Positions 7,723 to 42,297 of a stretch of DNA of 64,000 nucleotides are shown piece by piece (within the stretch, counting starts at the first letter, position 1; every line of letters starts with the position of its first letter). Position numbers and translations under genes: made by a program. The notes beneath the pieces are model-generated. The model did not search any database, was not told the origin of the DNA, and was given only the letters and a program-made list of their open reading frames with translations. Origin of the DNA: an uncultured Gammaproteobacteria bacterium. GTDB taxonomy: Bacteria; Cyanobacteriota; Vampirovibrionia; 2-02-FULL-35-15. The DNA is taken from contig CAZRTB010000002.1 in the NCBI GenBank assembly GCA_964602915.1, positions 86,301-150,300 of the forward strand. Reading direction: 5' to 3'.

Positions 7723-7756
7723 TTCGTATTAGTTCAAAATCTAGAGATAGGTTAAG

Positions 7757-7785: not shown

Positions 7786-7893
7786 TTATATAAGGAAATA
7801 AACTGGAACATGTATTGCATTAATCAAATCTTTACGGTAGTATTGTTTCATTATAAATAGATAGGGAATTGAGACTACAAGGGGGTATTTATC

Positions 7894-8094
7894 ATGAACT
7901 ATTCAATGCAAAAATTATATGATGATTTTATGAAGAAAATCGGTGATTCAGATTTAAGAACATTAGATACTATGCCAACTGATGTTGCTGTTAATTATGT
8001 ATTTTTCCTTTATAACAAATTTTATGAAGCTTATCCAACTGGTGAAATGTTTGAAGTTTTAAGTGACCGTTTTGGATGTAGGATGGCCGCATAG
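7894..8094 (+). CDS. Small hypothetical protein (66 aa)
   Basis: Strong SD (aagggggt) 8 nt upstream of the ATG. There is no recognisable motif, and it sits in an otherwise empty intergenic space. Confidence 0.3.
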   Translation: MNYSMQKLYDDFMKKIGDSDLRTLDTMPTDVAVNYVFFLYNKFYEAYPTGEMFEVLSDRFGCRMAA

Positions 8095-8180
8095 AAAATC
8101 TCGAGTAAATTAATTATCTTTAGAGAATTGTTAATTAATTCTATATTTTCACAAAGATTCTAGTTTTAGAGTTACCATAT

Positions 8181-11889: not shown

Positions 11890-11961
11890 TGGGCAGTAAA
11901 GGATTTGAACCTTTGACCCCCTCGGTGTAAACGAGGTGCGCTACCGCTGCGCCAACTGCCC
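11890..11961 (-). tRNA. tRNA-Val (anticodon UAC)
   Basis: The reverse complement gives GGGCAGTTGGCGCAGCGGTAGCGCACCTCGTTTACACCGAGGGGGTCAAAGGTTCAAATCCTTTACTGCCCA. There is a 7-bp acceptor stem, a D-arm with GG, an anticodon stem CCTCG/CGAGG with loop TTTACAC (anticodon TAC), a T-arm GGTTCAAATCC and discriminator A. No CCA is encoded. Confidence 0.85.
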
Positions 11962-20633: not shown

Positions 20634-22574
20634 TTAGCCAACTAAAGCTTGTTGAGTAGTGAATGTAGATGACTCTAAACCGATTGATGGCTTGTTCTTC
20701 TCATACCACAACTGAAATACTAAAAGATTCCATAATAGTTTTTTATTATCCCATTTTTCATCTAAGTGATTTTGAACAATTTTATCTATAAAGTTATGCT
20801 GAAATAACCCTTGTTTTTTAATGTAATCTTTGCTGGTGTAATGTAATAAAGTGTCTTTTAACTCATGCTTAAGCCATTTAGTTGTAGGAATAGCAAACCC
20901 TTGTTTTTTCTTATAGATAATCCATTTGGGGATATGTTTTTCTGCCATTTTTTTAAGAATATATTTTGATGTAAGTCTATTTAGTTTTAAATCATAAGGA
21001 AGTTTTGCCCCGAATTCCTGAATTGTATAATCTAGAAATGGTGCTCTAACTTCAAGACTGGTAGCCATGCTTGCTCTGTCGACTTTAAATAAAATATCAT
21101 CACTTAAATAAAGTTTTGAAATAAGATAAAGCATCCTGTCTTCATCGTTTGAAATAAATTTACCCCTTAGGTAATTGTTTATTTCAGTAAAAGTATTTTC
21201 TTTTATCTGAGAGCTAATATCAGGATTTAAGAGCATTTCTTTTTCGCTATCAATATATGCCCCCATCCACACGAACATTCTGATTTCGTTAGACAATCCT
21301 ACTCCTCTTAAAAACTGTTTTAATGCGAAAGGAAAGCTTAAGTATGTTTCACGTGCAGGTAGGTTGTTTGCACCAGAGAGAATTATATTTTTAATCTCAC
21401 GTGGGAGAACATTATATAAACCAATTAATCTATGAACAGGAAATATCTGATAACCTGCGAAAAGCTCATCACCACCATCACCGCCCAGGCAGACTTTTAA
21501 TTGTTTGGATGCAAAATTTGAAAGGAAATATGTAGGAAGTATAGAAGCATCTGACATTGGCTCATCTACTAAATCTGCCATATTAGGAATTAGCTTTAAA
21601 CACTCTTTACTGTCGAATAAGAATTGATTATGATCACTTCCTAGTTCTTTAGCAAACCTTGTAGCTATTTTTGATTCGTCAAAAGATTTTTCTTCAAACC
21701 CTATAGAAAAAGTTTTGATAGGATCAGAAGAATGATAAGTCATAAATTTTGCCACAAGACTAGAGTCAATTCCACCGCTTAAAAATACTCCCAGAGGAAC
21801 ATCGCTCATTAAGCGTCTTTTAACTGCTTCTCCAAAAAGTCTTTCTAGCTCTTCTGTAGCTTCCTCTTCTGTGATTTTTAATTTTGGAGCATCGAGAGGT
21901 ATATCCCAATACTGATGTATCTTTACTTCTCCGTTTTCAAGAATGAGAGCCTTGCCTGGCTCAAGCTTGTAAATATTCTTAATAATAGAATGTGGGGAAG
22001 GAATGTTTTCAAAAGAAAGATATTTATTTAGACCTTCAAGATTTAGTTCTTTTTTAATTTCGGGGATAGCTAAAACGCCTTTTAATTCAGAAGAGAAATA
22101 AATTGAACCGTTCTGAAGTGCATAATAGAGAGGCTTTACACCCATTCTATCTCTAGCTAAGAACAATCTGTTTTTATTTTGATCCCATATAGCAAAAGCA
22201 AACATTCCATTCATATGGTTTGGACAATCCAGCCCATATGTTTCATAAAGGTGGATTATAGCTTCATTGTCAGATTTTGTTTTAAATTTATGCCCTTTTG
22301 ATTCAAGGTCTTTTAAAAGGTCAGGGAAGTTATAGATCTCTCCGTTTCCTACCAATGCTATGGAATTGTCTTCATTAAATAAAGGTTGTTTCCCTGTTGT
22401 TAAATCTACGATACTTAATCTTCTATGTCCAAAACCAATGCCATTTCTGTCATCAAAATAAAAACCATCCTGATCTGGACCTCTGTGACTAATAGCAGAA
22501 GTAGCAGTTTCTAGTACCTTTCTATTTACAGGTTCTTTAGAAGTAAAATTATAAATCCCGATAATTCCGCACAT
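20634..22574 (-). CDS. asnB: Asparagine synthetase (glutamine-hydrolysing) family amidotransferase, AsnB/WbpS-like
   Basis: N-terminal MCGIIGIY (Ntn Cys2) with GHRRLSIVD, and a synthetase domain with the PP-loop FLSGGIDSS. Its position in a glycan cluster suggests sugar or uronate amidation rather than housekeeping Asn synthesis. Confidence 0.85.
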   Translation of the reverse strand: MCGIIGIYNFTSKEPVNRKVLETATSAISHRGPDQDGFYFDDRNGIGFGHRRLSIVDLTTGKQPLFNEDNSIALVGNGEIYNFPDLLKDLESKGHKFKTKSDNEAIIHLYETYGLDCPNHMNGMFAFAIWDQNKNRLFLARDRMGVKPLYYALQNGSIYFSSELKGVLAIPEIKKELNLEGLNKYLSFENIPSPHSIIKNIYKLEPGKALILENGEVKIHQYWDIPLDAPKLKITEEEATEELERLFGEAVKRRLMSDVPLGVFLSGGIDSSLVAKFMTYHSSDPIKTFSIGFEEKSFDESKIATRFAKELGSDHNQFLFDSKECLKLIPNMADLVDEPMSDASILPTYFLSNFASKQLKVCLGGDGGDELFAGYQIFPVHRLIGLYNVLPREIKNIILSGANNLPARETYLSFPFALKQFLRGVGLSNEIRMFVWMGAYIDSEKEMLLNPDISSQIKENTFTEINNYLRGKFISNDEDRMLYLISKLYLSDDILFKVDRASMATSLEVRAPFLDYTIQEFGAKLPYDLKLNRLTSKYILKKMAEKHIPKWIIYKKKQGFAIPTTKWLKHELKDTLLHYTSKDYIKKQGLFQHNFIDKIVQNHLDEKWDNKKLLWNLLVFQLWYEKNKPSIGLESSTFTTQQALVG

Positions 22575-22597
22575 GGGTTAGATTATAGCGTATCTTA

Positions 22598-24046
22598 CTA
22601 TACCTTTTGTATTTCTTTTTCCTCTTCTTGGACTTTAATATTAATTTCTTCAGCTGAAGAATGTAAGTTTGCTTTAGGCTTTTTATTATTAGTTTTTAGA
22701 ATATTAAGGATGATTCCCATACCCTCTTCAAATAAAACATTAATATCATGAATTGTTCTTATTTCAAGGATTCGACTAAGAATATAGTTTGGTCTGAAAT
22801 AGAAAGCTTTTATAGCTTTATTTCTAATTCTGTAGAGTTCTTCTTCTGGAAGAAAATGAATTTTTTCTGGACTATGACTCCACTCTGTCCCAGGTCTGAT
22901 TCCTGCTACGTTAAATGATGCAAAACTACAATCAATTTCTTTAGCAAAACTAACTGTTCTCATAATATCTTCTTCAGTTTCACCAGGGAGCCCTATTATA
23001 AAAGTAGCCGCTCTTCTTATACCTTTTTTCTTGCAGAGTTCAAACGCATTTTTAACTTTTTCTACTGTTATTCTTTTTTGGACATCTAAAAGTGTTTTGT
23101 CATTTATACTTTCAATCCCAAAAATTATCGTGTGACATCCTGAAGACTTCATGGCAGAAACCAACTCTTCATTTATAACATCTACTCTGGAAAAACAATA
23201 CCAGGAGAATTTTAAATCTTCTTTTACCATTCTTTCGCAGAGTTCTATAGCACGTTTTTTATTTGCTCCGAAGGTTTGGTCTCTAAAATAAAGTTCTTTT
23301 ACGCCCAATGATTTTAAGTACTTTAGTTCTTCAATGATTTCATCAACAGGTCTTACTTTAAATCCAAGATTATCATTTCTTATAGGACAAAATGAGCAGT
23401 TAAATGCACACCCAAAATCAGTCATTAAGTGAGCTGTAGGAAATTCTCTTGAAAAAGCATATTTGTATTCTTCTAAAGGAAATAATTCATGTTTTGGTGT
23501 AGGTAATGAAAACTCTCCTTTTGGTCTTGAAATACTACCACTAATTATTTTCCCATTCTCACTTTTAAAAATACAGTTTTCAATAGGTTTTGAATCTGAG
23601 TTATTTATTAGTTTAATAATTGAATCATCTGAAAAATCTAAAATACAACCATCAAAAAAGTCATTTTCTTTTATAAAATCTTCACCGTTATCTAAAAACA
23701 CATCTCCAGTTCCAATTATTTTCAGGTCTGGAATTAAGGATTTAATTCCCTGAAGGAATAATTTATCTTCTTTCCATGATATTGTCCCAACTAAAACTAC
23801 TAAATAATCAGGATTAAGTTTTAAGATTCTGTTTTTAGTTTCTAATGGAGAGTAATTTTTTACTAAAGCGTCAATTAAAGCTACATCAAAATTCTCTGAA
23901 TCAAGCCTTCCTGATAAATAAAGCAAATCCATAGGGTAGTGGATGTAACTGCTTTTTGAGACATTATTACAGTAGTAATCTCTAAGGAAAACCTCACTGC
24001 CAGGAGGATTAAGAAGTAGTACTTTAAGTTTATTTTTTGTTTGCAT
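22598..24046 (-). CDS. B12-binding domain radical SAM protein (class B)
   Basis: N-terminal Rossmann-like cobalamin-binding region, then the radical SAM CxxxCxxC motif (GCAFNCSFC) and a TIM-barrel-like remainder. Confidence 0.75.
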   Translation of the reverse strand: MQTKNKLKVLLLNPPGSEVFLRDYYCNNVSKSSYIHYPMDLLYLSGRLDSENFDVALIDALVKNYSPLETKNRILKLNPDYLVVLVGTISWKEDKLFLQGIKSLIPDLKIIGTGDVFLDNGEDFIKENDFFDGCILDFSDDSIIKLINNSDSKPIENCIFKSENGKIISGSISRPKGEFSLPTPKHELFPLEEYKYAFSREFPTAHLMTDFGCAFNCSFCPIRNDNLGFKVRPVDEIIEELKYLKSLGVKELYFRDQTFGANKKRAIELCERMVKEDLKFSWYCFSRVDVINEELVSAMKSSGCHTIIFGIESINDKTLLDVQKRITVEKVKNAFELCKKKGIRRAATFIIGLPGETEEDIMRTVSFAKEIDCSFASFNVAGIRPGTEWSHSPEKIHFLPEEELYRIRNKAIKAFYFRPNYILSRILEIRTIHDINVLFEEGMGIILNILKTNNKKPKANLHSSAEEINIKVQEEEKEIQKV

Positions 24047-24132
24047 TTTAAGTATATTTATTATACTGCTTAATTTTTTATTGATATTTAAACTTTATTA
24101 GTGCAAAAAGGCATACATATTACTTGTTTAAG

Positions 24133-25629
24133 CTACACTCCTGTAAGAGCTCTAAGTGCTTTTGTATATTTTGCTATGTCTTTTAGTCCTCTTATCCTTG
24201 CAAAATTTCTATAGATTACTTTAGGTTGTTTATAGTATTCATCAAATGCTTTTTTAAGAAGCTCTTGCATTTTCTCTTTTCCAATTTTTGGATTTACATA
24301 AACAGGATTTGAATAGTCAACACAACTATAATCTTTCCATGTAACATCGCTTCTTAGTCCACCATCATCTTTAGCTTGTTGTAAAAGATGTGATCCAGGA
24401 TATGGTACTGGTAAGAAAAATAATGCTGTTTCAGTTCCGAGCTTTTTAGCAAAGGAAATTGTAGTTTCAACATCGTCTACTGTTTCACCAGGAAGTCCTA
24501 AGATATAACTCGCCATTACTTGAATACCAAGCTTTTGACAGTTTCTTATTTCTTGCTCATATTTATTTAATAGATAAGGATTTCCGTTCGGATCATTTGG
24601 ATCGGGCTTAAAAGCAGATGAGTAAGATGCTTTTTTAATTAATTCAAGTGATTTAATATTCCCAGATTCAATACCAATCTGAATCATCCAGCATCCAGCT
24701 TTTTTTAATTCTGTTAGAAGTTCATAATCTAGCTGATCTGCTCTGGCATTACAAGCAAAAGAGATTTTAAAATCCTGTTTCTGGATCTCTTTAAGTAGAC
24801 TCATTATGAAATCTCTTCTTACAGTAAAAACACTGTCAAGAAAATAAATTCCTTTTGCCCCATAATTTTTTACAAGAAATTGAATGTTTTCAATTGCTCT
24901 TTCAACAGTAAGAGATCTTATTTTTCTACCTAGTACTGCTCCATGATCACAATAAGTGCATTGATAAGGACACCCTCTTTGTAAAACCATAGGATAATTA
25001 GGAAGATCAATATACTGAGTTACATGTGGAACATACTTTTCCATTTTTACCTTGTGATATGCAGGGAATGGAAGAGAATCTAAATCTGGAATCGGTGTTC
25101 TTGGAGGAGAGTATTTTACTTTATTTTCTTCTTTACTCCAGTAGGCCAATCCATCAACTTTATGAAAATCTTTTCCTTCGCTTAAACAATTAGCTATATC
25201 AACAAAAGTTTGTTCACCTTCTCCAGTTATTATTAAGTCTGCAGATTTGCATTCGATAACTGTTTGTTCAGGTAATGCAGTAGGGTGAACACCACCTAAA
25301 ACAATTATGGCTTCAGGAGAAACTTCTCTAATTGCTTTGACTGATTCGAAAGCATCTAGAGCTGAATTAGTCATGCATGTGATACCGATTAAATCATATT
25401 TATTATTTTTAATAAATTCTTTTAAGTCATTTATTTTATATCTTTCAACTAAGCAATCTAAAACGTCACAATGAAATCCTTTTGATTCCATATAGCCAGC
25501 AATGTACATAATTCCAAGTGGTGGCACATTGCCACTGCCTTTTTTAAATCTTCCCCACATAATTTCATCAGAAATTGGTGGCTGTAAAACTAGTGTTCTT
25601 ACTTCTTTTTTCATATAGTTTCTATGCAA
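24133..25629 (-). CDS. B12-binding domain radical SAM protein (class B), a second distinct copy
   Basis: It has the CxxxCxxC motif RGCPYQCTYC and an N-terminal B12-binding-like domain (GITCMTNSALDAFESV). It is a paralog in function but diverged in sequence from 22598..24046. Confidence 0.75.
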   Translation of the reverse strand: MHRNYMKKEVRTLVLQPPISDEIMWGRFKKGSGNVPPLGIMYIAGYMESKGFHCDVLDCLVERYKINDLKEFIKNNKYDLIGITCMTNSALDAFESVKAIREVSPEAIIVLGGVHPTALPEQTVIECKSADLIITGEGEQTFVDIANCLSEGKDFHKVDGLAYWSKEENKVKYSPPRTPIPDLDSLPFPAYHKVKMEKYVPHVTQYIDLPNYPMVLQRGCPYQCTYCDHGAVLGRKIRSLTVERAIENIQFLVKNYGAKGIYFLDSVFTVRRDFIMSLLKEIQKQDFKISFACNARADQLDYELLTELKKAGCWMIQIGIESGNIKSLELIKKASYSSAFKPDPNDPNGNPYLLNKYEQEIRNCQKLGIQVMASYILGLPGETVDDVETTISFAKKLGTETALFFLPVPYPGSHLLQQAKDDGGLRSDVTWKDYSCVDYSNPVYVNPKIGKEKMQELLKKAFDEYYKQPKVIYRNFARIRGLKDIAKYTKALRALTGV

Positions 25630-25718: not shown

Positions 25719-26612
25719 GTGTTAAATATGAGTAATGAAGAAAAAATTAGTGTGGTTCTTCCTTGTTTTAATGAAAACAGTGCTATTGAGAAAACAATAG
25801 ATGACATAAAATTTTTGCTTGAACCAATTTTATCTGAGATTGTTGTAGTTGATGATGGTTCTACTGATGGAACTTATCAAGTTTTAAAAAAAAGAAATGA
25901 TATTAAACTTTTGAGGAATTCATATAATAAAGGCTATGGTTTCTCTTTAAAAAAAGGAATTCTTTCTGCACAAAGCGATATTATTGCGATTACAGATGCA
26001 GATGGGACATATCCTATAGAAGAAATCCTATTAATGGTGAAAAAACTTGAAGAAGGATTTGATTTAATTATAGGTAAGAGAGATAATTTACAAAGTTTTG
26101 ATCCGTTCTTAAAAAAGATTTCAAGATTTCTATTTAAACTGATTGCAGAATTCGTTGCTGGTGAAAAAATATTGGATGTTAATTCCGGGTTGAGGGTTTT
26201 TCGCAAAAGTGTAATTTCTAAGTATTTTGTGAATACTTCTAGTGGATTTTCTTTCTCCCTTTCGACAACATTAATTTATATTTTAGAAGGTTTAGCTGTT
26301 TATTATCACCCGATTAAATACAGAGAGAGAATAGGTGAGTCTAAAGTTAAATATCTGAGAGATATTTTAAGATCAGCTCAGATCCTAGTAGAAACAATTG
26401 CTCTATATAACCCTATAAAAATCTTTATGTTGTTTGCCTTGAAAATAAGTGGTTTTGGATTTCTCTTATTACTTATTTCGTTTTTATTTGGAGTTGTAAA
26501 TAGTTCTTTGGCAATAACAGGTTTCTTTATACTTCAAGGACTTGCAGTTTTTACTTTTTCATTGGGGTTAATTTGTTTATTGTTAAAGAAAAGAATTTTT
26601 GCTGATAGATAA
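25719..26612 (+). CDS. GT2 polyprenyl-phosphate glycosyltransferase (GtrB/ArnC/DPM1-like) with a C-terminal TM pair
   Basis: ISVVLPCFNE, VVVDDGSTDGT and TDADGTYP (the DxD region), plus two C-terminal hydrophobic helices typical of GtrB/ArnC-type Und-P-sugar synthases. Confidence 0.75.
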   Translation: MLNMSNEEKISVVLPCFNENSAIEKTIDDIKFLLEPILSEIVVVDDGSTDGTYQVLKKRNDIKLLRNSYNKGYGFSLKKGILSAQSDIIAITDADGTYPIEEILLMVKKLEEGFDLIIGKRDNLQSFDPFLKKISRFLFKLIAEFVAGEKILDVNSGLRVFRKSVISKYFVNTSSGFSFSLSTTLIYILEGLAVYYHPIKYRERIGESKVKYLRDILRSAQILVETIALYNPIKIFMLFALKISGFGFLLLLISFLFGVVNSSLAITGFFILQGLAVFTFSLGLICLLLKKRIFADR

Positions 26613-28265
26613 ATGGCTGATTTAAAAAATTCAAAGTTCTTTTATCCCATATTAATCTTTTTAATTTGGCTTTTCATGTATATTATTTGTAACTCTTTGT
26701 GGGAACATCAAATATGGTGGGATGAAACTTCTTATCTAAGTACAGCTAGAGGAATTGTTAGGGACTTTGATTTCAGCAGTAGAACTACAACAGTTCAAGG
26801 GACTTTAAAATATAATTTTCCCCAGCATACCCATCATTACCCTTTACATTCTGTGTATATGGCAATTTTCCTTAAACTGTTTGGAGACAATTTAAATTCT
26901 GGGTATCTCTCTGTGTGGATAAGTGGTTTAATAACAGTTTTATTTATTTATCTAACTTGCAATTTATTCTTTCCAGAGAAAAAATTCCTTTCATTTATTG
27001 TTGGGATCTCATTTATGTTTTTCCCTAGGATACTTCATTATTTTGATTCGGGGATGATGGAAATCCCATGCTGTGCACTGCTTTCAATGACTTCCTGTTT
27101 CGTTTTTAAGAATCTTAAGTTAGGAAAAATAAATCCTTTTTTGATTGCTTTGTTTTCAATATGGCTTTATTGTTATAAAAGTCTTTTTGTTGGAACTGTT
27201 TTTGGCTTTTTAGTTTTAATAATACTTTCATCTGCTTTTAAAGATTTAAATATTAAGTCTAAATTTAATGGATTTCAAAATGTTTGTGTCTATCTTGGGC
27301 TTTTTGTTTTCTTATATATAGTTCTCTCCAAATTTATATTTTTATCACTAGCGCCCATGATGAATTTTCTATCTAGATTAGAAACTCCTGAGGGTGCTTA
27401 TGCGGATTTTGCAGGAGGATTTTTAAGTGATCCTTTTGGCTATATTAAAATAAGCCTTGCTATCTTGTACCAAAATTTTATAGTTAATTACTCTATTTAT
27501 AATGTTGTTCGAGAAAATGGACTAGATGCTTTTTATGTTTCTATTCCAAATGTCTATGAATATAATATTTATTTAATTACTATATTTTTTATAAGTGTAT
27601 TTCTAATAACTTTATGGAAGAGAATTAATTCGCTTGGAAGACTGTATATTTTATTTACAATATCATCAATATTCTTTATGAATTTCTTTTTTGCATTAAT
27701 TGCTGGAGGCTCTCCGGGAATACTTTGCAGGTACAATATTCATTTTGTCCCTAATTTATTAATTTCATTTGTAATTATTTTAAATGAGTTAAAAAATGAC
27801 TTTATGAAATTTTACTTACCAAATAAAGTAGCTATTAATATTATTTCTTGCACACTTTTTCTGATTGTTTATATTCCATATTATAGATCTGCAAATGCTG
27901 TTATGGATTGGGAGAAAAAAACTTATTCTGGTATAGCTAATGGGAATTCAAAACTAATAGAGAAATTTACAGGAAACACAAATCTAAGATTTATCTATTT
28001 TACTGTGGGAAATCATTCTACTTGGAATAATTACCCTTTAAGGGTTATAGCTATGGAGGCTACTGGTGAACAGATTAAGAAGCTGAATTATAAGCTTGGA
28101 GTACCTATAGAATATCTTTTTATTTTTCCTCATAATTATCTTTTTAAAGAAAATCAGGATAAAATCTTAAAAGCCCTTCCTATAATTGATAATTGGTATA
28201 CTTTTTATGGATTTGATAAAGATAGTAAAGTGTTTGTTTATAGGTTTAATCCGGTAAATAAATGA
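26613..28265 (+). CDS. GT-C fold glycosyltransferase, ArnT/PMT-like (PMT_2, GT39/GT83-like)
   Basis: Polytopic membrane protein. After TM1, the first loop carries WWDETSYLSTARGI (compare ArnT PDETRYAEI and the PMT DE motif). It starts immediately after the GT2 stop (26612/26613). Confidence 0.5.
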   Translation: MADLKNSKFFYPILIFLIWLFMYIICNSLWEHQIWWDETSYLSTARGIVRDFDFSSRTTTVQGTLKYNFPQHTHHYPLHSVYMAIFLKLFGDNLNSGYLSVWISGLITVLFIYLTCNLFFPEKKFLSFIVGISFMFFPRILHYFDSGMMEIPCCALLSMTSCFVFKNLKLGKINPFLIALFSIWLYCYKSLFVGTVFGFLVLIILSSAFKDLNIKSKFNGFQNVCVYLGLFVFLYIVLSKFIFLSLAPMMNFLSRLETPEGAYADFAGGFLSDPFGYIKISLAILYQNFIVNYSIYNVVRENGLDAFYVSIPNVYEYNIYLITIFFISVFLITLWKRINSLGRLYILFTISSIFFMNFFFALIAGGSPGILCRYNIHFVPNLLISFVIILNELKNDFMKFYLPNKVAINIISCTLFLIVYIPYYRSANAVMDWEKKTYSGIANGNSKLIEKFTGNTNLRFIYFTVGNHSTWNNYPLRVIAMEATGEQIKKLNYKLGVPIEYLFIFPHNYLFKENQDKILKALPIIDNWYTFYGFDKDSKVFVYRFNPVNK

Positions 28266-29905
28266 ATATAAAAAATGACAATCTTAAAAACCTTCTTTTT
28301 ATAACCATAGTTTGGTTTTTTGTCTACTGCTTTTGTCAGGTAATTTTAGAACAAAAACTTGGGTGGGATGAAATAAATTATTTGTCTGTTGCTAGAGGGA
28401 TAGCTGAAAACTTTGATTATAGTGCTAGATCTTATACTGTTATGGGACTTTTAAAACATGGGTTTCCTACGCATTCTATTAATTACCCAGTATCTTCGTT
28501 TTACATAGCACTTTTTTTTAAACTTTTTGGAGCATCTTTGAAAGTTGCTTATTTCTCTACATGGTTGGCAGGGCTAGGCGTATGTATTTTAATTTACTTT
28601 ATTTTTAACTTATTCTCAGAGAATAAAAAGTTATCAGTTTTAGTTTCACTATCATACTTGTTATATCCAGGGTTTATAAGAAACTTTGATAGTGCAATGA
28701 TGGAACAGTTAGGGAATTGTTTATTGTGTTTATTTACATACTTAATTTTTAAAGACTATATCAAAGGATTGTTTGATTGGAGGACTCTATTAAAGATAGT
28801 TTTTATGTGCTTAATTTTATGGATCTATAAAACCTTATTTGTAGGAATATTTTATGGGATTTTATCTTTCATTTTCTTATCTTCTAAAGATCTTGTTGGG
28901 GAAAAGGTAACTTTTAAAATCCATCCCATATTATTTACACTTCTAAATTTCGCTATATTTGCAGGACTACTTTTCATATGTATGAAATGGATATTCTTGC
29001 CAGTTGCTCCAATGATGAACTTCACTATTGATAAAGAATATAGTCAGGTCTACTCAGACTTTTTAGCAGGCTACTTTAATGACTTTCCTAACAGCTTTTT
29101 GACTAATGTTGTTAACTCTTTCTATATACTAAAGACCTTTTTTATTTATCCGAGTCATTATGTAGAGCCGCAAAGTCATTTCTTTATTTTTATACCGTAT
29201 ATCGTTTTAATTTCCTTTTATTTTTTGGTATTAATATTTAGTATCTTGTTTTTGTTTTTAGTTTGGCATTTGTTAAAGCCAGAAGAAAAAACTTTTATAG
29301 TTTTTACTATTACCTCTATCTTGGGATTTAATGTAACTTTTTTTACTATATTTATTACTACCTATGAAAATATGTGGAGATATAATCTTTACTATCTACC
29401 ACTTTATTTAATTACTATAGGAATAGTTTTAAAGTCTTTAAATACTTATTTTGATAATTTCTATCAAAGAAATAAAATATTCTCATATCTGTTTGTTCTG
29501 GTTTTTATCGTTTTTATTTATACTCCTCTTACATTTTCTGCTATGAAAATGCAAAAAATATCTTATGATTACTATCATAACCAGGCAAAAATGAATGGAA
29601 TGCTAGTTAGCAAAGTCCTTGAAAAATATCCATCAAGGTTTATTTATTTAAACGATGGATCACATACGGCTTTTACATCATTTCCAACTATTCAGATTAT
29701 GAAAGATGCTACAAATGAACAGCTACTTCAGATTAACAAAATTCTTCCAGAGCCCATAGGATTTTTATTCTTAAAACAGTCAGACTGGTTGGCTGTAAAT
29801 AATAAAGAACAGATCTTAAAATCAGAACCAATTTTAAATAATAGTTATGTTTATTACTCATATGAGCCTACTACTAATACTGTGATTTATCGTTATAGAG
29901 GATGA
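28262..29905 (+). CDS. GT-C fold glycosyltransferase, ArnT/PMT-like; tandem paralog of 26613..28265
   Basis: GWDEINYLSVARGIAENFDYSARSYTVMGLLKHGFP aligns with QIWWDETSYLSTARGIVRDFDFSSRTTTVQGTLKYNFP of the upstream gene. The ATGA start/stop overlap (28262-28265) indicates translational coupling. Confidence 0.5.
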   Translation: MNIKNDNLKNLLFITIVWFFVYCFCQVILEQKLGWDEINYLSVARGIAENFDYSARSYTVMGLLKHGFPTHSINYPVSSFYIALFFKLFGASLKVAYFSTWLAGLGVCILIYFIFNLFSENKKLSVLVSLSYLLYPGFIRNFDSAMMEQLGNCLLCLFTYLIFKDYIKGLFDWRTLLKIVFMCLILWIYKTLFVGIFYGILSFIFLSSKDLVGEKVTFKIHPILFTLLNFAIFAGLLFICMKWIFLPVAPMMNFTIDKEYSQVYSDFLAGYFNDFPNSFLTNVVNSFYILKTFFIYPSHYVEPQSHFFIFIPYIVLISFYFLVLIFSILFLFLVWHLLKPEEKTFIVFTITSILGFNVTFFTIFITTYENMWRYNLYYLPLYLITIGIVLKSLNTYFDNFYQRNKIFSYLFVLVFIVFIYTPLTFSAMKMQKISYDYYHNQAKMNGMLVSKVLEKYPSRFIYLNDGSHTAFTSFPTIQIMKDATNEQLLQINKILPEPIGFLFLKQSDWLAVNNKEQILKSEPILNNSYVYYSYEPTTNTVIYRYRG

Positions 29906-29908
29906 AGA

Positions 29909-30802
29909 TTGATAGAACTTATTTCAAAAGATAAAGATATTTTAAAGAAGCTGTCAACTGCTTTACATGAATCAACTGGAGACTTGTTGGATTTAGATTC
30001 AAAAGTAATCGCAGAAGAGTTTCTGTCTTATAAAAGAGCTAAAGAACAAATTGATTTATTTATTAAAACAGTTAATGAGTATGAAAAATATGATTTTAAA
30101 AATAAGAAATTCTTAGAGGTTGGATGTGGAGTAGGATCTTCACTTATAGTAGCTAAGAAAGATTATTCTATAGATGCTTTTGGAGTAGAACCATCATCTA
30201 AAGAGTTCTCTTCATTTAAAGAAATATCTTTACTCTTATTTAAAGAGCATAATTTATCAGATGAAATAATAATTAATTCTACTGCTGAAAGTCTTCCTTT
30301 TGAAAGTGAAACCTTTGATTTGGTTTATTCTACAAATGTTCTTGAACATGTAAATGATCCTGTTAAAGTTTTAAATGAATCGTACCGAGTCCTGAAAAGA
30401 GGTGGATTTTTGCAGTTTGTTATCCCAAACTATTTCTCTTTTTGGGAGGGACATTACGGGGTGTTTTGGCCTTGTATTACAAACAAAACATTAGGAAAGA
30501 TATATGCAACAATTATAGGTAAAAACCCTAAATATGTTGATTCTCTTCAGCTTATAAATCCTGGTTATTTAAAAAACATATTGAAAGATTTAGAGAATAA
30601 AATTGAAGTAATTGGTTGGGGAAAAGAAGTATTTAAAAACAGATTGGAAAATGGAAATTATTCTGACTGGGCATCTCTACAAAAAATTAGACCGCTAGTT
30701 GAAATTGTACAAAAAATTAAACTATCTTCCCTTATTTCAAGTACCTTAAATCTATTTGAAATGTATACTCCTATAGTTTTAACTTTTAAGAAGTTAAAAT
30801 AG
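29909..30802 (+). CDS. Class I SAM-dependent methyltransferase (Methyltransf_11-like)
   Basis: Motif I LEVGCGVGSSL, motif post-I DAFGVEPS and motif II/III DLVYSTNVLEHV...RVLKRGGFLQF. The apparent start is TTG. Confidence 0.65.
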   Translation: MIELISKDKDILKKLSTALHESTGDLLDLDSKVIAEEFLSYKRAKEQIDLFIKTVNEYEKYDFKNKKFLEVGCGVGSSLIVAKKDYSIDAFGVEPSSKEFSSFKEISLLLFKEHNLSDEIIINSTAESLPFESETFDLVYSTNVLEHVNDPVKVLNESYRVLKRGGFLQFVIPNYFSFWEGHYGVFWPCITNKTLGKIYATIIGKNPKYVDSLQLINPGYLKNILKDLENKIEVIGWGKEVFKNRLENGNYSDWASLQKIRPLVEIVQKIKLSSLISSTLNLFEMYTPIVLTFKKLK

Positions 30803-31979
30803 GTTCTTTAGCTGGCTTTTTACCATAAGCTACTTCTTCATATATTTTAAAATAGTTCTCAGCAATTTTTTTCCAGGAGAAAGATTCTGATTTCTTTAAA
30901 CTGTTTTGTGCCATTTTTTGCCTTAAGTTAGAATCCGTAGCTAATTTTGCAATTGCATGTGCAATAGCCTTATGGTCTCCATACTCTATACAAAAACCAT
31001 TTATTCCATCTTCTAATACTTCAGAAAACCCTTCTACTTTAGAACCAATAACTGGTAACCCACAAGCCATTGCTTGAAGTACTACACTAGGCATACCTTC
31101 CATCACTGATGGTAGTAGGAAGACATCTGCACTTCTGTAAATATCAGGAAGTTCTTCTAATTTCTTCCATCCTAAAAATTCTACCTTGCTACTTATGTCG
31201 TATTCATTTACTAATGAGAACATTTTCTCTTTTAAAGGACCATCACCAACTACAGTAAGTTTAAAATTCTCTACTCCAAGCTTTTTTAACTCTCCACACG
31301 ATTTAATTAGAGGTTCAACGCCTTTTTGAGCACAGAGTCTGCTTATGAATAATAAATTTATACAATCATTATTTTGTTTTTGATTTGATGGGAAAAATAC
31401 TTCTGTATCAACACCATTTGTTATCATCTCAATTCTTTGCTTTGGTGAAAACCGCACGCATAATTCTTTTAGCGAACTACTATTTGCAATTATGTTTGAA
31501 GAATTATTCCATATGGACCTTGAAAGTAAGTGAGTAATTGAATGATATGTATTTAATTTCCAGTCCCCGATATTAAATCCTGGTACATCAGCGCCAAGGG
31601 TAGATGAAATATATGGTATGTTAAAGGTCTTTTTGCAGTAGAGTCCAAAACATCCTGCAGGAATAGTGAAAAAACAGTGGATTAAATCTGGAGATGTTTT
31701 TCTAACAATCTTTTTTGCGTTAAACAATGATTCTAAGATAAATCTTGTCATTTCAGGGATATGAGATGTTTCAAAATTATTTTTTTGTGGTCCTATATAG
31801 TAAATATTAAAGCCATCTGGGTGCTCTACAAAGCTTTTATCATAAGGTTTTGAAGTTATAACATTCACTTCAACACCCATTTTAGAAAGATATTTTGCTA
31901 AAAATCTTGTTGTTGTTCCGCCACCTCCGCCTATCGGTGGCAGTTCATGATTTGCCATTAATACTTTTATTTTTTTCAT
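30786..31979 (-). CDS. GT4 family (GT-B) glycosyltransferase
   Basis: C-terminal Glycos_transf_1 signature EGMPSVVLQAMACGLPVIGSKVEGFSEVLEDG (the E-X7-E-like motif) and an N-terminal GT4 fold start MKKIKVLMAN. Confidence 0.8.
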   Translation of the reverse strand: MKKIKVLMANHELPPIGGGGGTTTRFLAKYLSKMGVEVNVITSKPYDKSFVEHPDGFNIYYIGPQKNNFETSHIPEMTRFILESLFNAKKIVRKTSPDLIHCFFTIPAGCFGLYCKKTFNIPYISSTLGADVPGFNIGDWKLNTYHSITHLLSRSIWNNSSNIIANSSSLKELCVRFSPKQRIEMITNGVDTEVFFPSNQKQNNDCINLLFISRLCAQKGVEPLIKSCGELKKLGVENFKLTVVGDGPLKEKMFSLVNEYDISSKVEFLGWKKLEELPDIYRSADVFLLPSVMEGMPSVVLQAMACGLPVIGSKVEGFSEVLEDGINGFCIEYGDHKAIAHAIAKLATDSNLRQKMAQNSLKKSESFSWKKIAENYFKIYEEVAYGKKPAKEPILTS

Positions 31980-33769
31980 GCTTTATTTGAAACCAGATTA
32001 TTCTCAGTAATATTTTTTGAACTTGATTTATTCTCTAAAATATAATTTCCTATTATGAGCATATCTAAATGCCCTCTTTGAAAGCAATCTATAGCTTGTT
32101 TTGGTGATTCTACTATTGGTTCTTCATGCATATTAAAGCTGGTATTAATAACAGCAGGTACTCCAGTGATTTCTTCATGTAGTTTTAGCATTTTATAAAC
32201 AATTGGATTTTGTTCTTCAGTAATTGACTGGAATCTGGCTGTATTATCAATATGAACTGCGGCTGGAATATCTTTTTTCGCTTTATCTTTGACCTTTGTA
32301 GTTATTGTCATAAATTGAGTACATTTACTTTTGTTTTTTATATCTTCAAAATATAAATCCTCTTTATCTTTTAAAATAATTGGGGCAAAAGGCATAAACT
32401 CTGATCTTTCTAATTTCTCATTTAAGGATTGATTTATATAAGGATCTTTTGCACTTACAAATATACTTCTATTTCCTAAGGCTCTTGGTCCGTACTCCAT
32501 TCCACCGTTGTAGTGAGCTACTACTTTTCCTTCACTTATTGCTTTAGCCATTATTTGACTTATGTCATCAGGCTTGGAGTAGGTACAATTTTGAGCCTCT
32601 AATTCTTTTAAGATTTCTTCATCAGAATAACTTGGACCTAGATAAGCATTTTTAAGAAAATACGGCTTAGGGATTTTACCTTCTTGTACCATTAATGAAA
32701 ATGAAGCACCAACAGCAAGTCCACCATCACCCATATGTGGATAAACATATAACTCTTCTACACCATTGATTTCACTTATCTTTTGATTTAATTTAACATT
32801 AGCAAATACTCCGCCACATAGAGCAATTTTAGTTTTTTCTGATTTGCTAAATCTTTTAATTAAATCTTTTATGTATGAAATGATCATTTCTTCAGTATAT
32901 GTTTGAATACCAGCTGAAATATCTTCTTTGGAAAACTTACTGAGAGCTTTTTTTAGATAATTAATTTCACTATTGAAATAATGTCCTTTATTTATAAATG
33001 TCATTGAACCGCTATCATAGTAAATTCTTTCAGAGAAAATCTTTTTAGTTTCCTCTGCATTCCCATAGGCGGCTAAACCTGTTAATTTACCTTCCCGACC
33101 ATACTTAAAACCGCAGATGTTTGTAGCATATGAATAGTAGTATCCAGGTGAGCCGTAGAAAGGTATCTTATGCACATTTTTAAGCTTATTATTTTCTGGA
33201 ATAAAAACTTTTGAACAGTATCCATCTCCAGCACCATCTAGTGTGATTACTAAGCAATCATCCCATCCTGAAGTGTAATATGCGGATGATGCATGGCATG
33301 TATGATGATCTATAAAAATAACCTTTTGTTTAAATCCTAGATCTCTTAATTTGTTTATGACTTCTTTTCTGTATAAGCTTTGAATAAGACCATAAGAATT
33401 TTTTACGAACTCAGTAAAACCTACTGTTTTAAGTGCTTTTTGGATAAAACTTATTTTTGAAAGTTTTTCTCCTAATATTTGATGAAAGGCAAGATTAGAA
33501 TAATCTAGTGATGGAATATGATTTAAAGTTGATACTGAAATATAATCAAAATCTTCTGGTTTTAAATGGACTTTTTTACAAATCTCTTTTATTGAATATT
33601 CTGGAAACCCTATATAGAGTTTTTCTCTGTTAAATCTTTCTTCATTGACTGCAGTAACTATTTCCCCATCAACGTTTATAACTGCTCCTGCATCCTGCTC
33701 TGTAGAAATTGATAGAATCTTCATTTTCAATAGTATACATTGAGATAGCATTGAATTGTTAATAAACAT
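31976..33769 (-). CDS. Carbamoyltransferase, NodU/CmcH family
   Basis: N-terminal MKILSISTEQDAGAVINVDGEIVTAVNEERFNREK and HHTCHASSAYY are characteristic of NodU/CmcH O-carbamoyltransferases. Length is about 580 aa. The likely true start is the internal ATG at complement 33724. The 3' end overlaps the GT4 start by 4 nt. Confidence 0.7.
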   Translation of the reverse strand: MFINNSMLSQCILLKMKILSISTEQDAGAVINVDGEIVTAVNEERFNREKLYIGFPEYSIKEICKKVHLKPEDFDYISVSTLNHIPSLDYSNLAFHQILGEKLSKISFIQKALKTVGFTEFVKNSYGLIQSLYRKEVINKLRDLGFKQKVIFIDHHTCHASSAYYTSGWDDCLVITLDGAGDGYCSKVFIPENNKLKNVHKIPFYGSPGYYYSYATNICGFKYGREGKLTGLAAYGNAEETKKIFSERIYYDSGSMTFINKGHYFNSEINYLKKALSKFSKEDISAGIQTYTEEMIISYIKDLIKRFSKSEKTKIALCGGVFANVKLNQKISEINGVEELYVYPHMGDGGLAVGASFSLMVQEGKIPKPYFLKNAYLGPSYSDEEILKELEAQNCTYSKPDDISQIMAKAISEGKVVAHYNGGMEYGPRALGNRSIFVSAKDPYINQSLNEKLERSEFMPFAPIILKDKEDLYFEDIKNKSKCTQFMTITTKVKDKAKKDIPAAVHIDNTARFQSITEEQNPIVYKMLKLHEEITGVPAVINTSFNMHEEPIVESPKQAIDCFQRGHLDMLIIGNYILENKSSSKNITENNLVSNKA

Positions 33770-38780: not shown

Positions 38781-39611
38781 CTATGACTTTTTCTTTGCTA
38801 TGACAAAATAACCTATTGTATCTCTAGGACTGCCTATTACTGAATCTAAAACTAAGAAGATAATATTAATAATAGGGATTAATAGTGATGAAATAATGAT
38901 TAAGGGTGACTTATAAATAGCGTATAGAAGTGATCCATATAACTCTTTCTTGGAAACTGTTTTATCGCCTTTTATAGCACCGAATATATTTTTTACATGG
39001 TTAAGGTCAAATAATAAAATTAAGGCATTGCAAAAAGCTTGACCAACTACAGCAAAAGATTTTCCAAGTTCTTTCATATAAAGGATTTCAAAGTCTGTAT
39101 CAGTAATTTCTTTATTTAAAATATGTTTTGTGAATCTGATGTAATCATGTGGCTCTTCATGCAAATGCCAATATTGAGGTACTGAAATAATAAAAACACC
39201 ATCTTTCTTTAAAATCCTTTTAAATTCTTTTAAAGTTTCAAATGGTTCTGATACATGTTCTAAAACTGAAAACGAAATTATTGTGTTGACAGAGCTATCT
39301 TCAGCACTGATTTTAGGAAGCTCTGATAAAAAATCATATGTGATATTAGGTTTAATAGCAGATGGGTGTTCATGTTTTAAATACTTCTCTATATTTTTAA
39401 TAAAGTAATTATAAAAAGGTGAAGATCCACATCCTACATCTAATAGAACACCCTTAGCAAAGTGAGAATTTTTTTTAATCTCATTGATAAGGTAAAAATA
39501 TACTAAAAAGCAGTAATTAAAAATTGATAGACTAACCCTATTGTCCTGCCTGATAGCATTTTGCCTGAGGTTAATTGACTCTGATTTCTTATTTTCTTCT
39601 AAAACTACCAT
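38781..39611 (-). CDS. Class I SAM-dependent methyltransferase with a hydrophobic C-terminal tail
   Basis: Motif I LLDVGCGSSPFYNYF, motif II/III ISFSVLEHVSEPFETLKEFKRILKKDGVFIISVP, and a C-terminal roughly 40-aa hydrophobic segment. Confidence 0.6.
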   Translation of the reverse strand: MVVLEENKKSESINLRQNAIRQDNRVSLSIFNYCFLVYFYLINEIKKNSHFAKGVLLDVGCGSSPFYNYFIKNIEKYLKHEHPSAIKPNITYDFLSELPKISAEDSSVNTIISFSVLEHVSEPFETLKEFKRILKKDGVFIISVPQYWHLHEEPHDYIRFTKHILNKEITDTDFEILYMKELGKSFAVVGQAFCNALILLFDLNHVKNIFGAIKGDKTVSKKELYGSLLYAIYKSPLIIISSLLIPIINIIFLVLDSVIGSPRDTIGYFVIAKKKS

Positions 39612-40603
39612 TATGAAATAATCTTAACACTTTCTTTCTTCTCAACATTAAACCAGTTGTAAAATTCAATGATCCCGCCAATTAGACTAGTAAATATACC
39701 AATTATAAAAATTAATAATGAGTAACTTAGTGCTGATGAGCTTTCTATCCCAATTTTACCCATCAGTACAATAAGCGTTCCTTCACGAACTCCTAATCCA
39801 CAAAAACTTATTGGTAATAAACTAGCTAAAGAAATAACAGAGAATAACCATGCAGATTCAATTAAATTTATCTTAATATTTAAACTTAAGGCTAAATAGA
39901 ATAAAGAAAATACATGTGGTGCTTTAGTCATAAAGCTCCAAAATAATGTTTCAAAAAGAATCAATTTATGATTTTTGTATTCTTGAAAATATGTAAGCGA
40001 GAAGTTCTTAATGATTTCAGAATTAATTTTCAACATATCAAAAATCTTTATTAGAAGAGTTTTAACAAAGTTTAATAGCGTATCTATCTTTTCTGTAAAT
40101 AATAAAACAGTGAAAAATAAAGTTATGAGATTAATTGCAGAAATAGAAAAGATCAATTTCTTGTTTTCTCTAAAGTTATCATCAAGAACTAAACCAATTC
40201 CACCTATTATAAAAATAATAAGTAAATTAGTTGCTTTATCTAATATTATTGGAGCCCAAATCTTTTCAACTGAACCTTTCTCTTTTTTTTGTAACTTTAT
40301 CCCTTTAATTAACTCGCCTGAAGTTTGCCCAGGTACAAAAATGCTGTAAAACATTGATATGTAGTTTAGTTTTAAAAGTTCTACGAAGTTACTTTTAATT
40401 CCTAGAGGTTTAGCAAGCCTATACCATTTAAATGCAAGAAAAAAGTGAGATAAAGTACTGAAAATAATCCCAATGAATAAATATCCAGGACTAGCTTTAG
40501 TTAGCAATTTAAATGCTTCTTTAAAATCAACAATTTTTGTAAGCCAAATGATTAAGATTATAAGTAGAGAAAGCTTTAGAATTAAGAAAAAATTCTTTTT
40601 CAT
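39611..40603 (-). CDS. Flippase-like integral membrane protein (UPF0104 / LPG-synthase-TM-like family)
   Basis: 330 aa with about 8 TM helices and no soluble domain. This type of protein typically sits beside GT2 genes in glycolipid clusters. The assignment rests on architecture only. Confidence 0.35.
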   Translation of the reverse strand: MKKNFFLILKLSLLIILIIWLTKIVDFKEAFKLLTKASPGYLFIGIIFSTLSHFFLAFKWYRLAKPLGIKSNFVELLKLNYISMFYSIFVPGQTSGELIKGIKLQKKEKGSVEKIWAPIILDKATNLLIIFIIGGIGLVLDDNFRENKKLIFSISAINLITLFFTVLLFTEKIDTLLNFVKTLLIKIFDMLKINSEIIKNFSLTYFQEYKNHKLILFETLFWSFMTKAPHVFSLFYLALSLNIKINLIESAWLFSVISLASLLPISFCGLGVREGTLIVLMGKIGIESSSALSYSLLIFIIGIFTSLIGGIIEFYNWFNVEKKESVKIIS

Positions 40604-41742: not shown

Positions 41743-42297
41743 ATGTTAGATGAATTTAATAAGGATTTTAAAAATGTATTTAATGGTAATCCGCTAACGG
41801 TATTACAGAGATACATTTTTTTAACTATATATGGAATATTTAAATATCTTCCAACACCAATCGGTGATATTTTGAGAGCTGTTTTTTTAAAGCTATTTTT
41901 GAAAAAAATAAATACAATTTGGATAAGAGAAGGTGTAACATTTCACTTTCCTGAAAATATTTCTATGGGAAAAAGTATGGTTGCTGAATTTGTTTATTTT
42001 AATGGATATGGTGGAATTGAAATTGGAGATAAAGTTTTAATAGGTGCAAATAGCATGTTCTTTTCTCATGATCATAATTTTAGTGATATTACAAAACCCA
42101 TATGGCATCAGGGGCTAACAAAAAAACCTATAGTTATAAAAGATAATGTTTATATAGGGTGTGGGGTAACTGTTTTAGGAAATGTAACTGTAAATAGTGG
42201 ATCAGTAATTGGTGCTGGTAGTGTAGTAATTGAAGATGTTCCTGAAAATTCTATAGTAGCTGGAATTCCTGCTAAAGTGATAGGAGAGAGATCTTAA
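41743..42297 (+). CDS. Hexapeptide-repeat (LbH) acetyltransferase, WbbJ/LacA/maltose O-acetyltransferase-like
   Basis: Hexapeptide repeats IGDKVLIGANSMFF and IGCGVTVLGNVTVNSGSVIGAGSVV, with the conserved SHDHNF region. Confidence 0.7.
   Translation: MLDEFNKDFKNVFNGNPLTVLQRYIFLTIYGIFKYLPTPIGDILRAVFLKLFLKKINTIWIREGVTFHFPENISMGKSMVAEFVYFNGYGGIEIGDKVLIGANSMFFSHDHNFSDITKPIWHQGLTKKPIVIKDNVYIGCGVTVLGNVTVNSGSVIGAGSVVIEDVPENSIVAGIPAKVIGERS

Follow-up and report, generated by a model that had tools for sequence, protein, structure and literature searches.

A 64,000-nucleotide stretch of DNA (contig CAZRTB010000002.1 of assembly GCA_964602915.1, positions 86,301 to 150,300; the whole stretch is called the window below) was analysed, and the work centred on three consecutive genes at positions 25719-29905. 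The first gene encodes a family 2 glycosyltransferase, here called GT2, and the other two encode paralogous membrane proteins, here called M1 and M2. The region is probably a glycosylation module of the Gtr/Arn 'three-component' type that depends on a lipid carrier and acts outside the cytoplasm; in it GT2 would make a lipid-linked sugar donor and M1 and M2 would act as transferases. M1 and M2 are best regarded as an ArnT-like GT-C(A) subfamily restricted to one lineage, which standard hidden Markov model (HMM) libraries nearly miss. The DNA is from the Melainabacteria (Vampirovibrionia), the non-photosynthetic sister lineage of Cyanobacteria. To our knowledge almost no Melainabacteria have been cultured, and we know of no experimental characterisation of their envelope glycans.

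The three open reading frames (ORFs) lie on the forward strand at the positions that an earlier note on this DNA had given them. GT2, annotated as a polyprenyl-phosphate glycosyltransferase (ArnC/DPMS/AglJ-like donor synthase), occupies 25719..26612 and is 297 aa long when read from a GTG start. Its true start is probably ATG 25728 rather than the GTG, since public gene calls begin at this ATG and give 294 aa. M1 (26613..28265, 550 aa) and M2 (28262..29905, 547 aa, with the architecture of M1) are annotated as ArnT-like GT-C(A) transferases of an accessory and a core clade, respectively. The earlier note had let both transferase genes start at the GT2 stop and overlap each other by ATGA. The start at the stop applies to M1, whose ATG at 26613 directly abuts the GT2 stop TAA (26610-26612) with a spacer of 0 nt and no overlap; the ATGA overlap was found as described and joins M1 and M2 at 28262-28265. 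A gene for a class I S-adenosylmethionine (SAM)-dependent methyltransferase (29909..30802, forward strand, 297 aa; Pfam Methyltransf_11, 9e-19) starts 3 nt past the M2 stop. A promoter and terminator scan found no terminator-like site inside the packing of GT2, M1, M2 and the methyltransferase, and its promoter part told little in DNA so rich in AT (27 promoter-like sites vs 32 expected). To judge by the gene packing, GT2, M1 and M2 appear to be co-translated.

The motifs expected of GT2, PCFNE (residues 15-19), DDGSTDGT (45-52) and DADG (93-96; the DAD motif is at 25995-26003 on the forward strand), were confirmed by translation, as was a C-terminal hairpin of two hydrophobic transmembrane (TM) helices (235-253 and 271-289; 26421-26585, forward strand). 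The protein matched Pfam Glycos_transf_2 (PF00535) with E 1e-28. In a search of PDB sequences, ArnC (9bhc) was found with E 2e-18 over residues 7-280, the P. furiosus DPMS (5mlz) with E 3e-15 and Synechocystis GtrB (5ekp) with E 5e-10. BLASTP against E. coli ArnC gave 26% identity (E 4e-22), and the ArnC alignment runs unbroken to residue 280, through the juxtamembrane and TM part. GT2 residues D93/D95, R121, K132 and R204 are aligned in it with D100/D102, R128, R137 and R205 of ArnC, which are involved in catalysis and in binding of undecaprenyl phosphate (UndP) and the donor phosphate (PMC12690121). The second basic position, R137 in ArnC, is a Lys in GtrB as well (PMC12690121). The proposal that GT2 is a DPM1/GtrB/ArnC-like enzyme was thus supported by homology to ArnC, DPMS and GtrB across the GT-A domain, the juxtamembrane region and the TM hairpin. 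Orthologues of GT2 with 67-83% identity fall into about 80 clusters, and the next relatives are at most 48% identical.

M1 and M2 are 32% identical over their full length (BLASTP, E 7e-81), which places their paralogy far beyond chance, and each has conserved orthologues in other genomes. A common loop motif is present in both proteins, WWDETSYLSTARGI in M1 and GWDEINYLSVARGI in M2. The opening W[WD]DE that had been given for this loop does not fit M2, which reads G-W-D-E, and the right form is [WG]WDE[TI][SN]YLS.ARGI. Standard family models recognised the proteins poorly. M1 scored 19.7 bits against PMT_2, below the Pfam gathering score of 26.1, and 17.8 bits against Glucos_trans_II/GtrII (PF14264; cutoff 30 bits, E 2e-3), and no Pfam match was obtained for M2 even at E<=1. 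The GtrII model was matched by one of the 24 family members. Of the 24 family members, 13 matched PMT_2 at E<=0.1 (best 1.3e-7). The HMM check proposed in the earlier note thus gave a clear Pfam family for GT2 and a weak direct assignment for the transferases.

Structure prediction was more informative. AlphaFold2 (AF2) models made from the family alignment were confident for both M1 (pLDDT 86.2, pTM 0.86) and M2 (pLDDT 89.6, pTM 0.89). Each model consists of TM1, a 64-residue loop with two short helices, ten more membrane helices (about 11 TM helices in total), a long and partly flexible loop at 243-311 and a C-terminal alpha/beta domain of about 100 aa. The 64-residue loop is the first extracytoplasmic loop (EL1), residues 30-93, with helices at 36-51 and 78-90. 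A Foldseek search of the PDB with M1 returned STT3 (2.9e-6), ArnT 5f15 (2.2e-5) and then ALG12 and ALG9. With M2 the top match was ArnT 5f15 (1.5e-4), followed by AglB, DPY19, STT3 and PglB, and by Pmt4 and Pmt1/2 lower down. At E<1e-3 only GT-C enzymes were matched by either model. An ArnT/PMT-like GT-C nature, as the earlier note had put it, is well supported by the confident models and by the fact that ArnT and oligosaccharyltransferase subunits are the sole significant structural matches. No transporter family was assigned to M1 or M2 in any search; transporters and G protein-coupled receptors appeared among the Foldseek matches only at E>1 with a TM-score of about 0.1, and a transporter identity was rejected.

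The active-site loop was compared with that of ArnT at the level of single residues. Because an hhalign comparison of the family profile with the single sequence of E. coli ArnT was not significant (see below), a bridge was used, that is, a two-step profile alignment via a set of 35 PMT_2 relatives of about 500 aa (A3). A profile search of 1.84 billion representative proteins gave 79 matches at E<=1e-3, 35 of them at E<=1e-10. The distant matches are about 500 aa long, score above the PMT_2 threshold, are mostly from Cyanobacteria and carry the source names 'glycosyltransferase family 39' or 'ArnT family'. The family profile was aligned with A3 by hhalign over 484 columns, including the C-terminal domain (probability 99.95%, E 3e-38), and the A3 profile found C. 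metallidurans ArnT (5ezm) in the PDB with E 6e-24 and STT3A with E 1e-10. These two significant alignments place the WDE motif on D55/E56 of ArnT (native ArnT numbering, which is the chain numbering minus 3) and bear out the earlier claim that the loop corresponds to the ArnT catalytic loop. D37/E38 of M1 (WDE at 26718-26726) and D36/E37 of M2 (WDE at 28364-28372) are the equivalents of this pair. E150 of M1 (27060-27062), in the motif MME, falls on ArnT D158, a conservative change from Asp to Glu, and corresponds to E148 in the MMEQ motif of M2 (residues 146-149). K189 of M1 (27177-27179) falls on ArnT K203 and corresponds to K190 of M2; all these sites are on the forward strand. In ArnT, D55/E56 are the active-site pair of EL1, and D158 in EL2 and K203 in EL3 form a salt bridge and contact the substrate (PMC7801869). 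D37, E38, E150 and K189 are invariant in the M1-type alignment, and D36, E37, E148 and K190 are invariant among 56 M2-type orthologues. The two clades share 65 positions with a conservation of 90% or more, among them the DE pair, the EL2 Glu, the EL3 Lys and an RYN motif.

The membrane topology was examined by counting charges in loops, with helix boundaries from the AF2 models applied across the family alignments. Short loops predicted to lie inside carry on average 11.9 Lys and Arg residues in the M1 family and 12.1 in the M2 family, against 1.0 and 1.4 in short loops predicted to lie outside. The single Lys or Arg outside is the conserved catalytic Lys. A 19-residue hydropathy scan at a threshold of 1.6 detected just seven TM helices and gave an ambiguous charge count. 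Charge bias and homology together argue for 11 TM helices and an inside N-terminus, with the WDE loop, the EL2 Glu, the 243-311 loop and the C-terminal domain outside, as in ArnT. By the positive-inside rule the DE loop is therefore not cytoplasmic, in line with the outer-face position that the earlier note had predicted.

The weak PMT_2 matches raise the alternative that M1 and M2 are bacterial protein O-mannosyltransferases (CAZy GT39) that use polyprenyl-phosphate-mannose to modify secreted proteins. The orthologues P0013 and P0017 bear the source name 'glycosyltransferase family 39 protein', and Pmt4 and Pmt1/2 are among the lower Foldseek matches of M2. The label, however, derives from the name of the PMT_2 model, which covers ArnT-like enzymes too. 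No match to PMT (PF02366), MIR or PMT_4TMC was found in M1, M2 or the 24 family members, and the bridge profile, which detected ArnT, STT3 and a GPI mannosyltransferase among PDB entries, reached no Pmt chain at E<=1. A GT39 identity is considered very improbable, and M1 and M2 should not be filed as GT39 enzymes, because they lack a PMT, MIR or 4TMC domain and are not linked to any Pmt by the bridge profile.

Relatives of the transferases are narrowly distributed. When one genome each of 185,579 species was covered, they were encoded at eight loci, seven in metagenome-assembled genomes of Melainabacteria (one of them Caenarcanales) and one in a metagenome-assembled genome of Saccharibacteria, with 26% identity. 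Nine related loci, eight from Melainabacteria and the Saccharibacteria locus L015, were annotated by BLAST. In a neighbour-joining tree the M1-type and M2-type proteins formed two clean clades, with the Saccharibacteria and two other lineages as sister groups and the cyanobacterial PMT_2 proteins as outgroup. Evolution is faster in the M1 clade, whose branches are longer and whose sequences are less conserved. The gene order, GT2 followed by zero, one or two M1-type genes and then M2, is fixed in all nine loci. An M2-type gene was found in 9/9 loci, always with GT2 immediately 5' of the GT-C gene or genes. M1 is absent from L011, L012, L013, L014 and L015, occurs once in the window, in L006/L016 and in L010, and occurs twice in L004 and L009. 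The closest relative found, L012 (GT2 identity 80%, M2 identity 56%), has M2 only. Between loci the synthase is conserved at 70-83% identity vs 43-56% for the transferases. The M1-type and M2-type proteins each make up an old group of orthologues that hardly occurs outside Melainabacteria. Their duplication is old and not a local event, and since M2 occurs in all loci and M1 in 0-2 copies, M2 is the core gene and M1 an accessory gene of variable copy number. The pattern fits one donor that feeds a variable number of transferases.

The ATGA coupling of M1 and M2 could also mean that the two proteins form an obligate heterodimer, like yeast Pmt1-Pmt2 or mycobacterial EmbA-EmbB, and work as one machine without separate specificities. 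An M2-type neighbour stands beside every M1-type gene on long contigs, and the catalytic residues are kept in both proteins, as in both Pmt subunits. The copy numbers are at odds with this proposal. M2 alone follows GT2 in four Melainabacteria loci, including that of the closest relative, two M1 copies accompany M2 in two genomes, and the 56 M2-type clusters are not balanced by the roughly 32 M1-type clusters. M2 must therefore work without M1, and the variable number of M1 copies makes an obligate partnership rather unlikely. The obligate form was rejected on account of the M2-only loci and the 0-2 copies of M1; a facultative M1-M2 complex would be compatible with the distribution.

The fast evolution of the M1 clade and the absence of M1 from some genomes would also fit a catalytically dead paralog with an accessory or regulatory role. 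Such a subunit would hardly be expected to keep the DE pair, the EL2 Glu, the EL3 Lys and the RYN motif along with the other positions shared by the two clades, and this alternative is regarded as highly improbable. Because both paralogs retain the full catalytic set, both are probably active. Clade-diagnostic positions (M1/M2) were found beside the catalytic residues: H75/N74, R139/G137, I151/Q149, G261/Q262 and C372/W372. These substitutions are consistent with, and no proof of, a difference in substrate or linkage specificity. As they adjoin the active site, M1 and M2 probably differ in acceptor site or linkage, and the view of the earlier note that the duplication points to multiple acceptor specificities is plausible.

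Related GT-C genes outside the family also adjoin GT2 genes. In L019, from the true cyanobacterium Coleofasciculus sp. G3-WIS-01 (4038-8187), a GtrB-type GT2 gene is followed by two tandem PMT_2 genes with an 11-nt overlap, and in L018 (Cyanobacteria bacterium SID2) a PMT_2 gene is followed by a methyltransferase gene and then a GT2 gene. In L020 genes for a GT2, a methyltransferase, a GT-C, a second GT2, an LPG_synthase_TM protein and a methyltransferase stand together. The partner GT2s of these outgroup loci have the canonical DADLQ motif and a GtrB-type tail. Because outgroup relatives adjoin GT2 genes as well, the coupling of GT2 and GT-C is a general property of this GT-C branch, and it supports the reading of the genes as donor synthase and transferases.

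Several observations weigh against the proposed module. The GT2 signature is DADGTY and not the DADLQ[NDH] of ArnC, GtrB and DPMS. In polyprenyl-phosphate glycosyltransferases the Gln of this signature contacts the metal or the donor (PMC12690121); in GT2 it is replaced by Thr97. The protein terminates just past TM2, without the C-terminal beta-hairpin motif or tail of GtrB and ArnC. Its top NCBIfam matches, the Haloferax dolichyl-phosphate (Dol-P) hexose transferase, AglJ, ArnC, PpgS and PgfS, are all below cutoff. The best E-values, both for Dol-P hexose synthases, are 2.6e-28 and 1.4e-24, and no equivalog cutoff is reached (e.g. 98.5 vs 375 bits and 71 vs 529 bits). On the side of the transferases, phmmer with M1 and hmmsearch with the family profile retrieved nothing relevant from PDB sequences, and the Foldseek TM-scores are low, at about 0.4-0.5. 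The hhalign comparison with E. coli ArnT had E 0.12, a sub-significant result that still aligned W-DETSYLSTARGI with PDETRYAEISREM, the WDE loop against PDETRYAE. At the column of ArnT K85, M1 has His75 and M2 has Asn74. K85, in EL1, reportedly binds the phosphate of UndP, as Petrou et al. are said to have described in 2016; given the His and Asn, phosphate binding in M1 and M2 may differ from that in ArnT. Finally, GtrA, ArnE/F, MATE or a Wzx-like flippase was found neither in the operon nor in the scanned ORFs of the window. The DADGT motif, the short C-terminus and the unmet equivalog cutoffs are also the reasons for which GT2, although it is assigned by sequence to the polyprenyl-phosphate glycosyltransferases, is not regarded as the orthologue of any characterised enzyme. 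The sugar that it handles cannot be named from the sequence.

The unusual motif and the low equivalog scores would also be understandable if GT2 were an ordinary membrane-anchored GT2 that acts on a lipid-linked or soluble glycan, and the GT-C proteins drew their donor from elsewhere or used undecaprenyl-diphosphate (Und-PP)-oligosaccharides. STT3 as the top Foldseek match of M1 is in keeping with the latter. An ordinary GT2 would not, however, be expected to align with ArnC from residue 7 to 280, juxtamembrane and TM parts included, with R121, K132 and R204 conserved, nor to stand next to the GT-C genes in all nine loci and, as a canonical GtrB-type GT2, in the outgroups. Use of Und-PP-oligosaccharides is made less likely by the bridge profile, which prefers ArnT (6e-24) to STT3 (1e-10), by the C-terminal domain of just about 100 aa, by the occurrence of WWD solely in EL1 without an oligosaccharyltransferase-type WWDYG, and by the lack of any Wzy_C or O-antigen ligase match. 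This explanation is regarded as improbable. An identity of M1 and M2 as oligosaccharyltransferases (STT3/PglB/AglB, GT66), O-antigen ligases or polymerases was rejected on the absence of WWDYG and Wzy_C and on the small C-terminal domain.

With the three-component glycosylation systems (PMC11127046) as a pathway template, the module would work as follows. On the cytoplasmic face, the membrane-anchored GT2 would move one sugar from a nucleotide sugar to polyprenyl (undecaprenyl) phosphate. The lipid-linked sugar would then be flipped by a protein encoded outside the operon. On the outer face of the inner membrane, M2, ancestral and always present, would use the lipid-linked sugar to glycosylate one or more envelope acceptors, and M1, where present, would perform this transfer too. 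Catalysis is predicted to involve the EL1 Asp-Glu pair (D37/E38 in M1, D36/E37 in M2), the EL2 Glu (E150/E148) and the EL3 Lys (K189/K190). These catalytic residues and the topology model are directly testable predictions.

The genes downstream are conserved with the module. Orthologues of the methyltransferase, with 60-66% identity, lie downstream of the GT-C genes in 8/8 Melainabacteria loci, and methyltransferase genes also flank the related GT-C genes in the outgroup loci L018 and L020. A GT4 glycosyltransferase gene (30786..31979, reverse strand, 397 aa; Pfam Glycos_transf_1, 3e-42, and Glyco_transf_4) is convergent with the methyltransferase gene, and its orthologues (55-62% identity) are likewise present in 8/8 Melainabacteria loci. 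GT4 may build the acceptor on the cytoplasmic side. The co-conservation of the methyltransferase and GT4 suggests methylation of the sugar or the acceptor, with a glycolipid or glycan begun in the cytoplasm as the acceptor. Other recurrent neighbours are two types of carbamoyltransferase, small membrane proteins of the SxtJ/DUF5989 type, an AsnB-like amidotransferase and two radical-SAM enzymes. The block as a whole is kept in synteny beside gyrB-dciA-recF.

With regard to the flipping step, the sole candidate is a membrane protein with an LPG_synthase_TM domain, MprF flippase-like (39611..40603, reverse strand; Pfam PF03706, 3e-36). Its gene lies outside the operon, 10 kb away, between a methyltransferase gene and a gene for a radical-SAM/SPASM enzyme. 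A homologous domain adjoins a GT2 and a related GT-C in L020, and in L021 it occurs near a related GT-C, fused to an epimerase. In the Melainabacteria loci no conserved copy lies within 8 kb of the module. The protein could possibly serve as a non-classical flippase for the polyprenyl-phosphate sugar.

Further putative membrane enzymes are encoded to the right of this gene. Five consecutive paralogous membrane proteins of 726, 774, 639, 680 and 693 aa are encoded on the reverse strand at 47001-57581. They are 30-36% identical to one another, each has a [FY]DE motif soon after TM1, and several of them give weak TPR matches near the C-terminus. An hhalign comparison of the PMT_2 bridge profile with these five proteins was not significant. 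They resemble TMTC/PMT-like GT-C enzymes and could share the same lipid-sugar donor. Two divergently oriented genes, 42294-44618 (reverse strand) and 44695-47004 (forward strand), encode membrane proteins of about 770 aa with 24% identity (E 2.5e-44). One of the pair matches DUF2298 (9e-9), and a related protein of 733 aa adjoins GT4 in L012. A more extensive scheme can be drawn from these genes, in which one DPMS/AglJ-like GT2 would feed a battery of periplasmic GT-C enzymes within 32 kb (M1 and M2, the five paralogs of 639-774 aa and the two DUF2298-like proteins) with the LPG_synthase_TM-like protein as a non-classical flippase, M1 and M2 would form a new CAZy GT-C family, and a heavily decorated, methylated or carbamoylated envelope layer specific to Melainabacteria would be built. 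If this were true, the methyltransferase, GT4 and carbamoyltransferase would contribute to an envelope glycan or glycoprotein layer. The scheme as a whole is thought unlikely, and the smaller three-component module is preferred to it.

The remaining genes of the window were surveyed as well. Its left 17 kb is occupied by housekeeping genes (thrS, a sigma-70 gene, an IMPDH-like gene, prs and gyrB), and the only match above an Rfam gathering score in the window is a tRNA gene at 11890-11961 (reverse strand, 71 bits). The ORF at 18671-20464 (forward strand) encodes 597 aa with an N-terminal signal-like sequence and faint matches to LptD_N, LptC and DUF3769 (E 0.016-0.2). It is found in the same position, with 61-63% identity, in L006, L009 and L013, and its product may be an LptD/OstA-like outer-membrane protein. 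Upstream of GT2, at 20634-25629 on the reverse strand, are the genes of the AsnB-like amidotransferase and the two radical-SAM enzymes. The best NCBIfam match of the AsnB-like protein is the XrtA/PEP-CTERM type (601 bits vs a cutoff of 817), and one of the radical-SAM enzymes has a B12-binding domain and is HpnJ-like. These genes are kept upstream of GT2 in L009 and, minus one radical-SAM gene, in L013; their nature suggests an unusual sugar or lipid tailoring.

A NodU/CmcH-like carbamoyltransferase is encoded at 31976-33769 (reverse strand) and is 67-76% identical to copies in L011 and L012. The second carbamoyltransferase type, about 30% identical to it, is encoded directly after M2 in L006, L011, L013 and L014. 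In L006 (11382-15175) it is followed by SxtJ, a protein of 455 aa and DUF5989, and in L011, L013 and L014 a similar ORF of 442-446 aa comes after it. The ORF at 33897-36743 (forward strand) encodes 948 aa with an N-terminal TM segment and has no Pfam match even at E<=1; in L010, L012 and L013 the cluster is bordered on this side by homologues with 38-52% identity. At 58000-62013 (forward strand) there is an ORF of 1337 aa without a Pfam match. The GC content of the window is 27-33%; around this last ORF it is 0.40-0.42 vs 0.26-0.34 in the preceding ~50 kb, which makes the segment a compositional outlier.

Literature searches turned up no publication on the Melainabacteria module or its cyanobacterial relatives. 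The logic of the system is already well established and no new type of mechanism is proposed, but the members are new and uncharacterised. The family could be delimited as lineage-restricted, with about 35 strong matches among the 1.84 billion representative proteins. The noteworthy features are that it is narrowly distributed and varies in copy number, that the synthase motif is non-canonical and that a flippase is missing.

Among known systems the closest is ArnC/ArnT, in which the gene of a membrane-anchored polyprenyl-phosphate GT2 is likewise accompanied by one for a GT-C transferase of about 550 aa. Among solved structures GT2 is matched best by ArnC, and ArnT is the best or near-best structural match of M1 and M2 and the best match of the bridge profile. 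The equivalents of its DE pair, D158 and K203 are conserved, and the inside N-terminus, the periplasmic EL1 and a small periplasmic C-terminal domain are shared. Other features set the module apart. No arnA, arnB or arnD gene and no ArnE/F flippase is present in the window. GT2 shares 26% identity with ArnC; its signature is DADGT, and the C-terminal hairpin that follows the TM part in ArnC is missing. ArnT has 13 TM helices vs about 11 predicted here, and its D158 is replaced by Glu and its K85 by His or Asn in M1 and M2. Each synthase is accompanied by two or three transferases, and nothing points to Ara4N or lipid A. M1 and M2 should therefore not be filed as ArnT (GT83) proper, because the Arn context is missing, the K85 column is unconserved, the number of helices is 11 vs 13 and the cutoffs are not met.

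The archaeal and eukaryotic Dol-P hexose synthases (such as AglJ, the Haloferax enzyme and the P. furiosus DPMS) provide the best NCBIfam matches of GT2, and DPMS 5mlz the match of 3e-15 noted above. The scores are far below cutoff (98 vs 375 bits), however, and since the host is a bacterium the lipid would presumably be undecaprenyl phosphate. Outside the M1/M2 family, the closest relatives by sequence are the cyanobacterial PMT_2 or 'ArnT family' proteins with their GtrB-type GT2s (L018, L019). They too stand beside a GT2, sometimes in tandem and sometimes with a methyltransferase, but pairwise identity is about 25-30% over parts of the proteins, their GT2s have DADLQD and a GtrB-type C-terminus, and none has been characterised. 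Closest in logic is the Gtr system of O-antigen glucosylation, with the flippase GtrA, the synthase GtrB and a serotype-specific GtrC (PMC11127046), where one conserved synthase serves variable GT-C transferases. The present module has no GtrA, the GtrII match of M1 is sub-threshold and M2 has none. Moreover, the locus is chromosomal and syntenic by the housekeeping genes gyrB/recF, and not phage-borne. In having one conserved synthase and one to three transferases, the Melainabacteria module resembles the serotype-type surface diversification of the Gtr systems.

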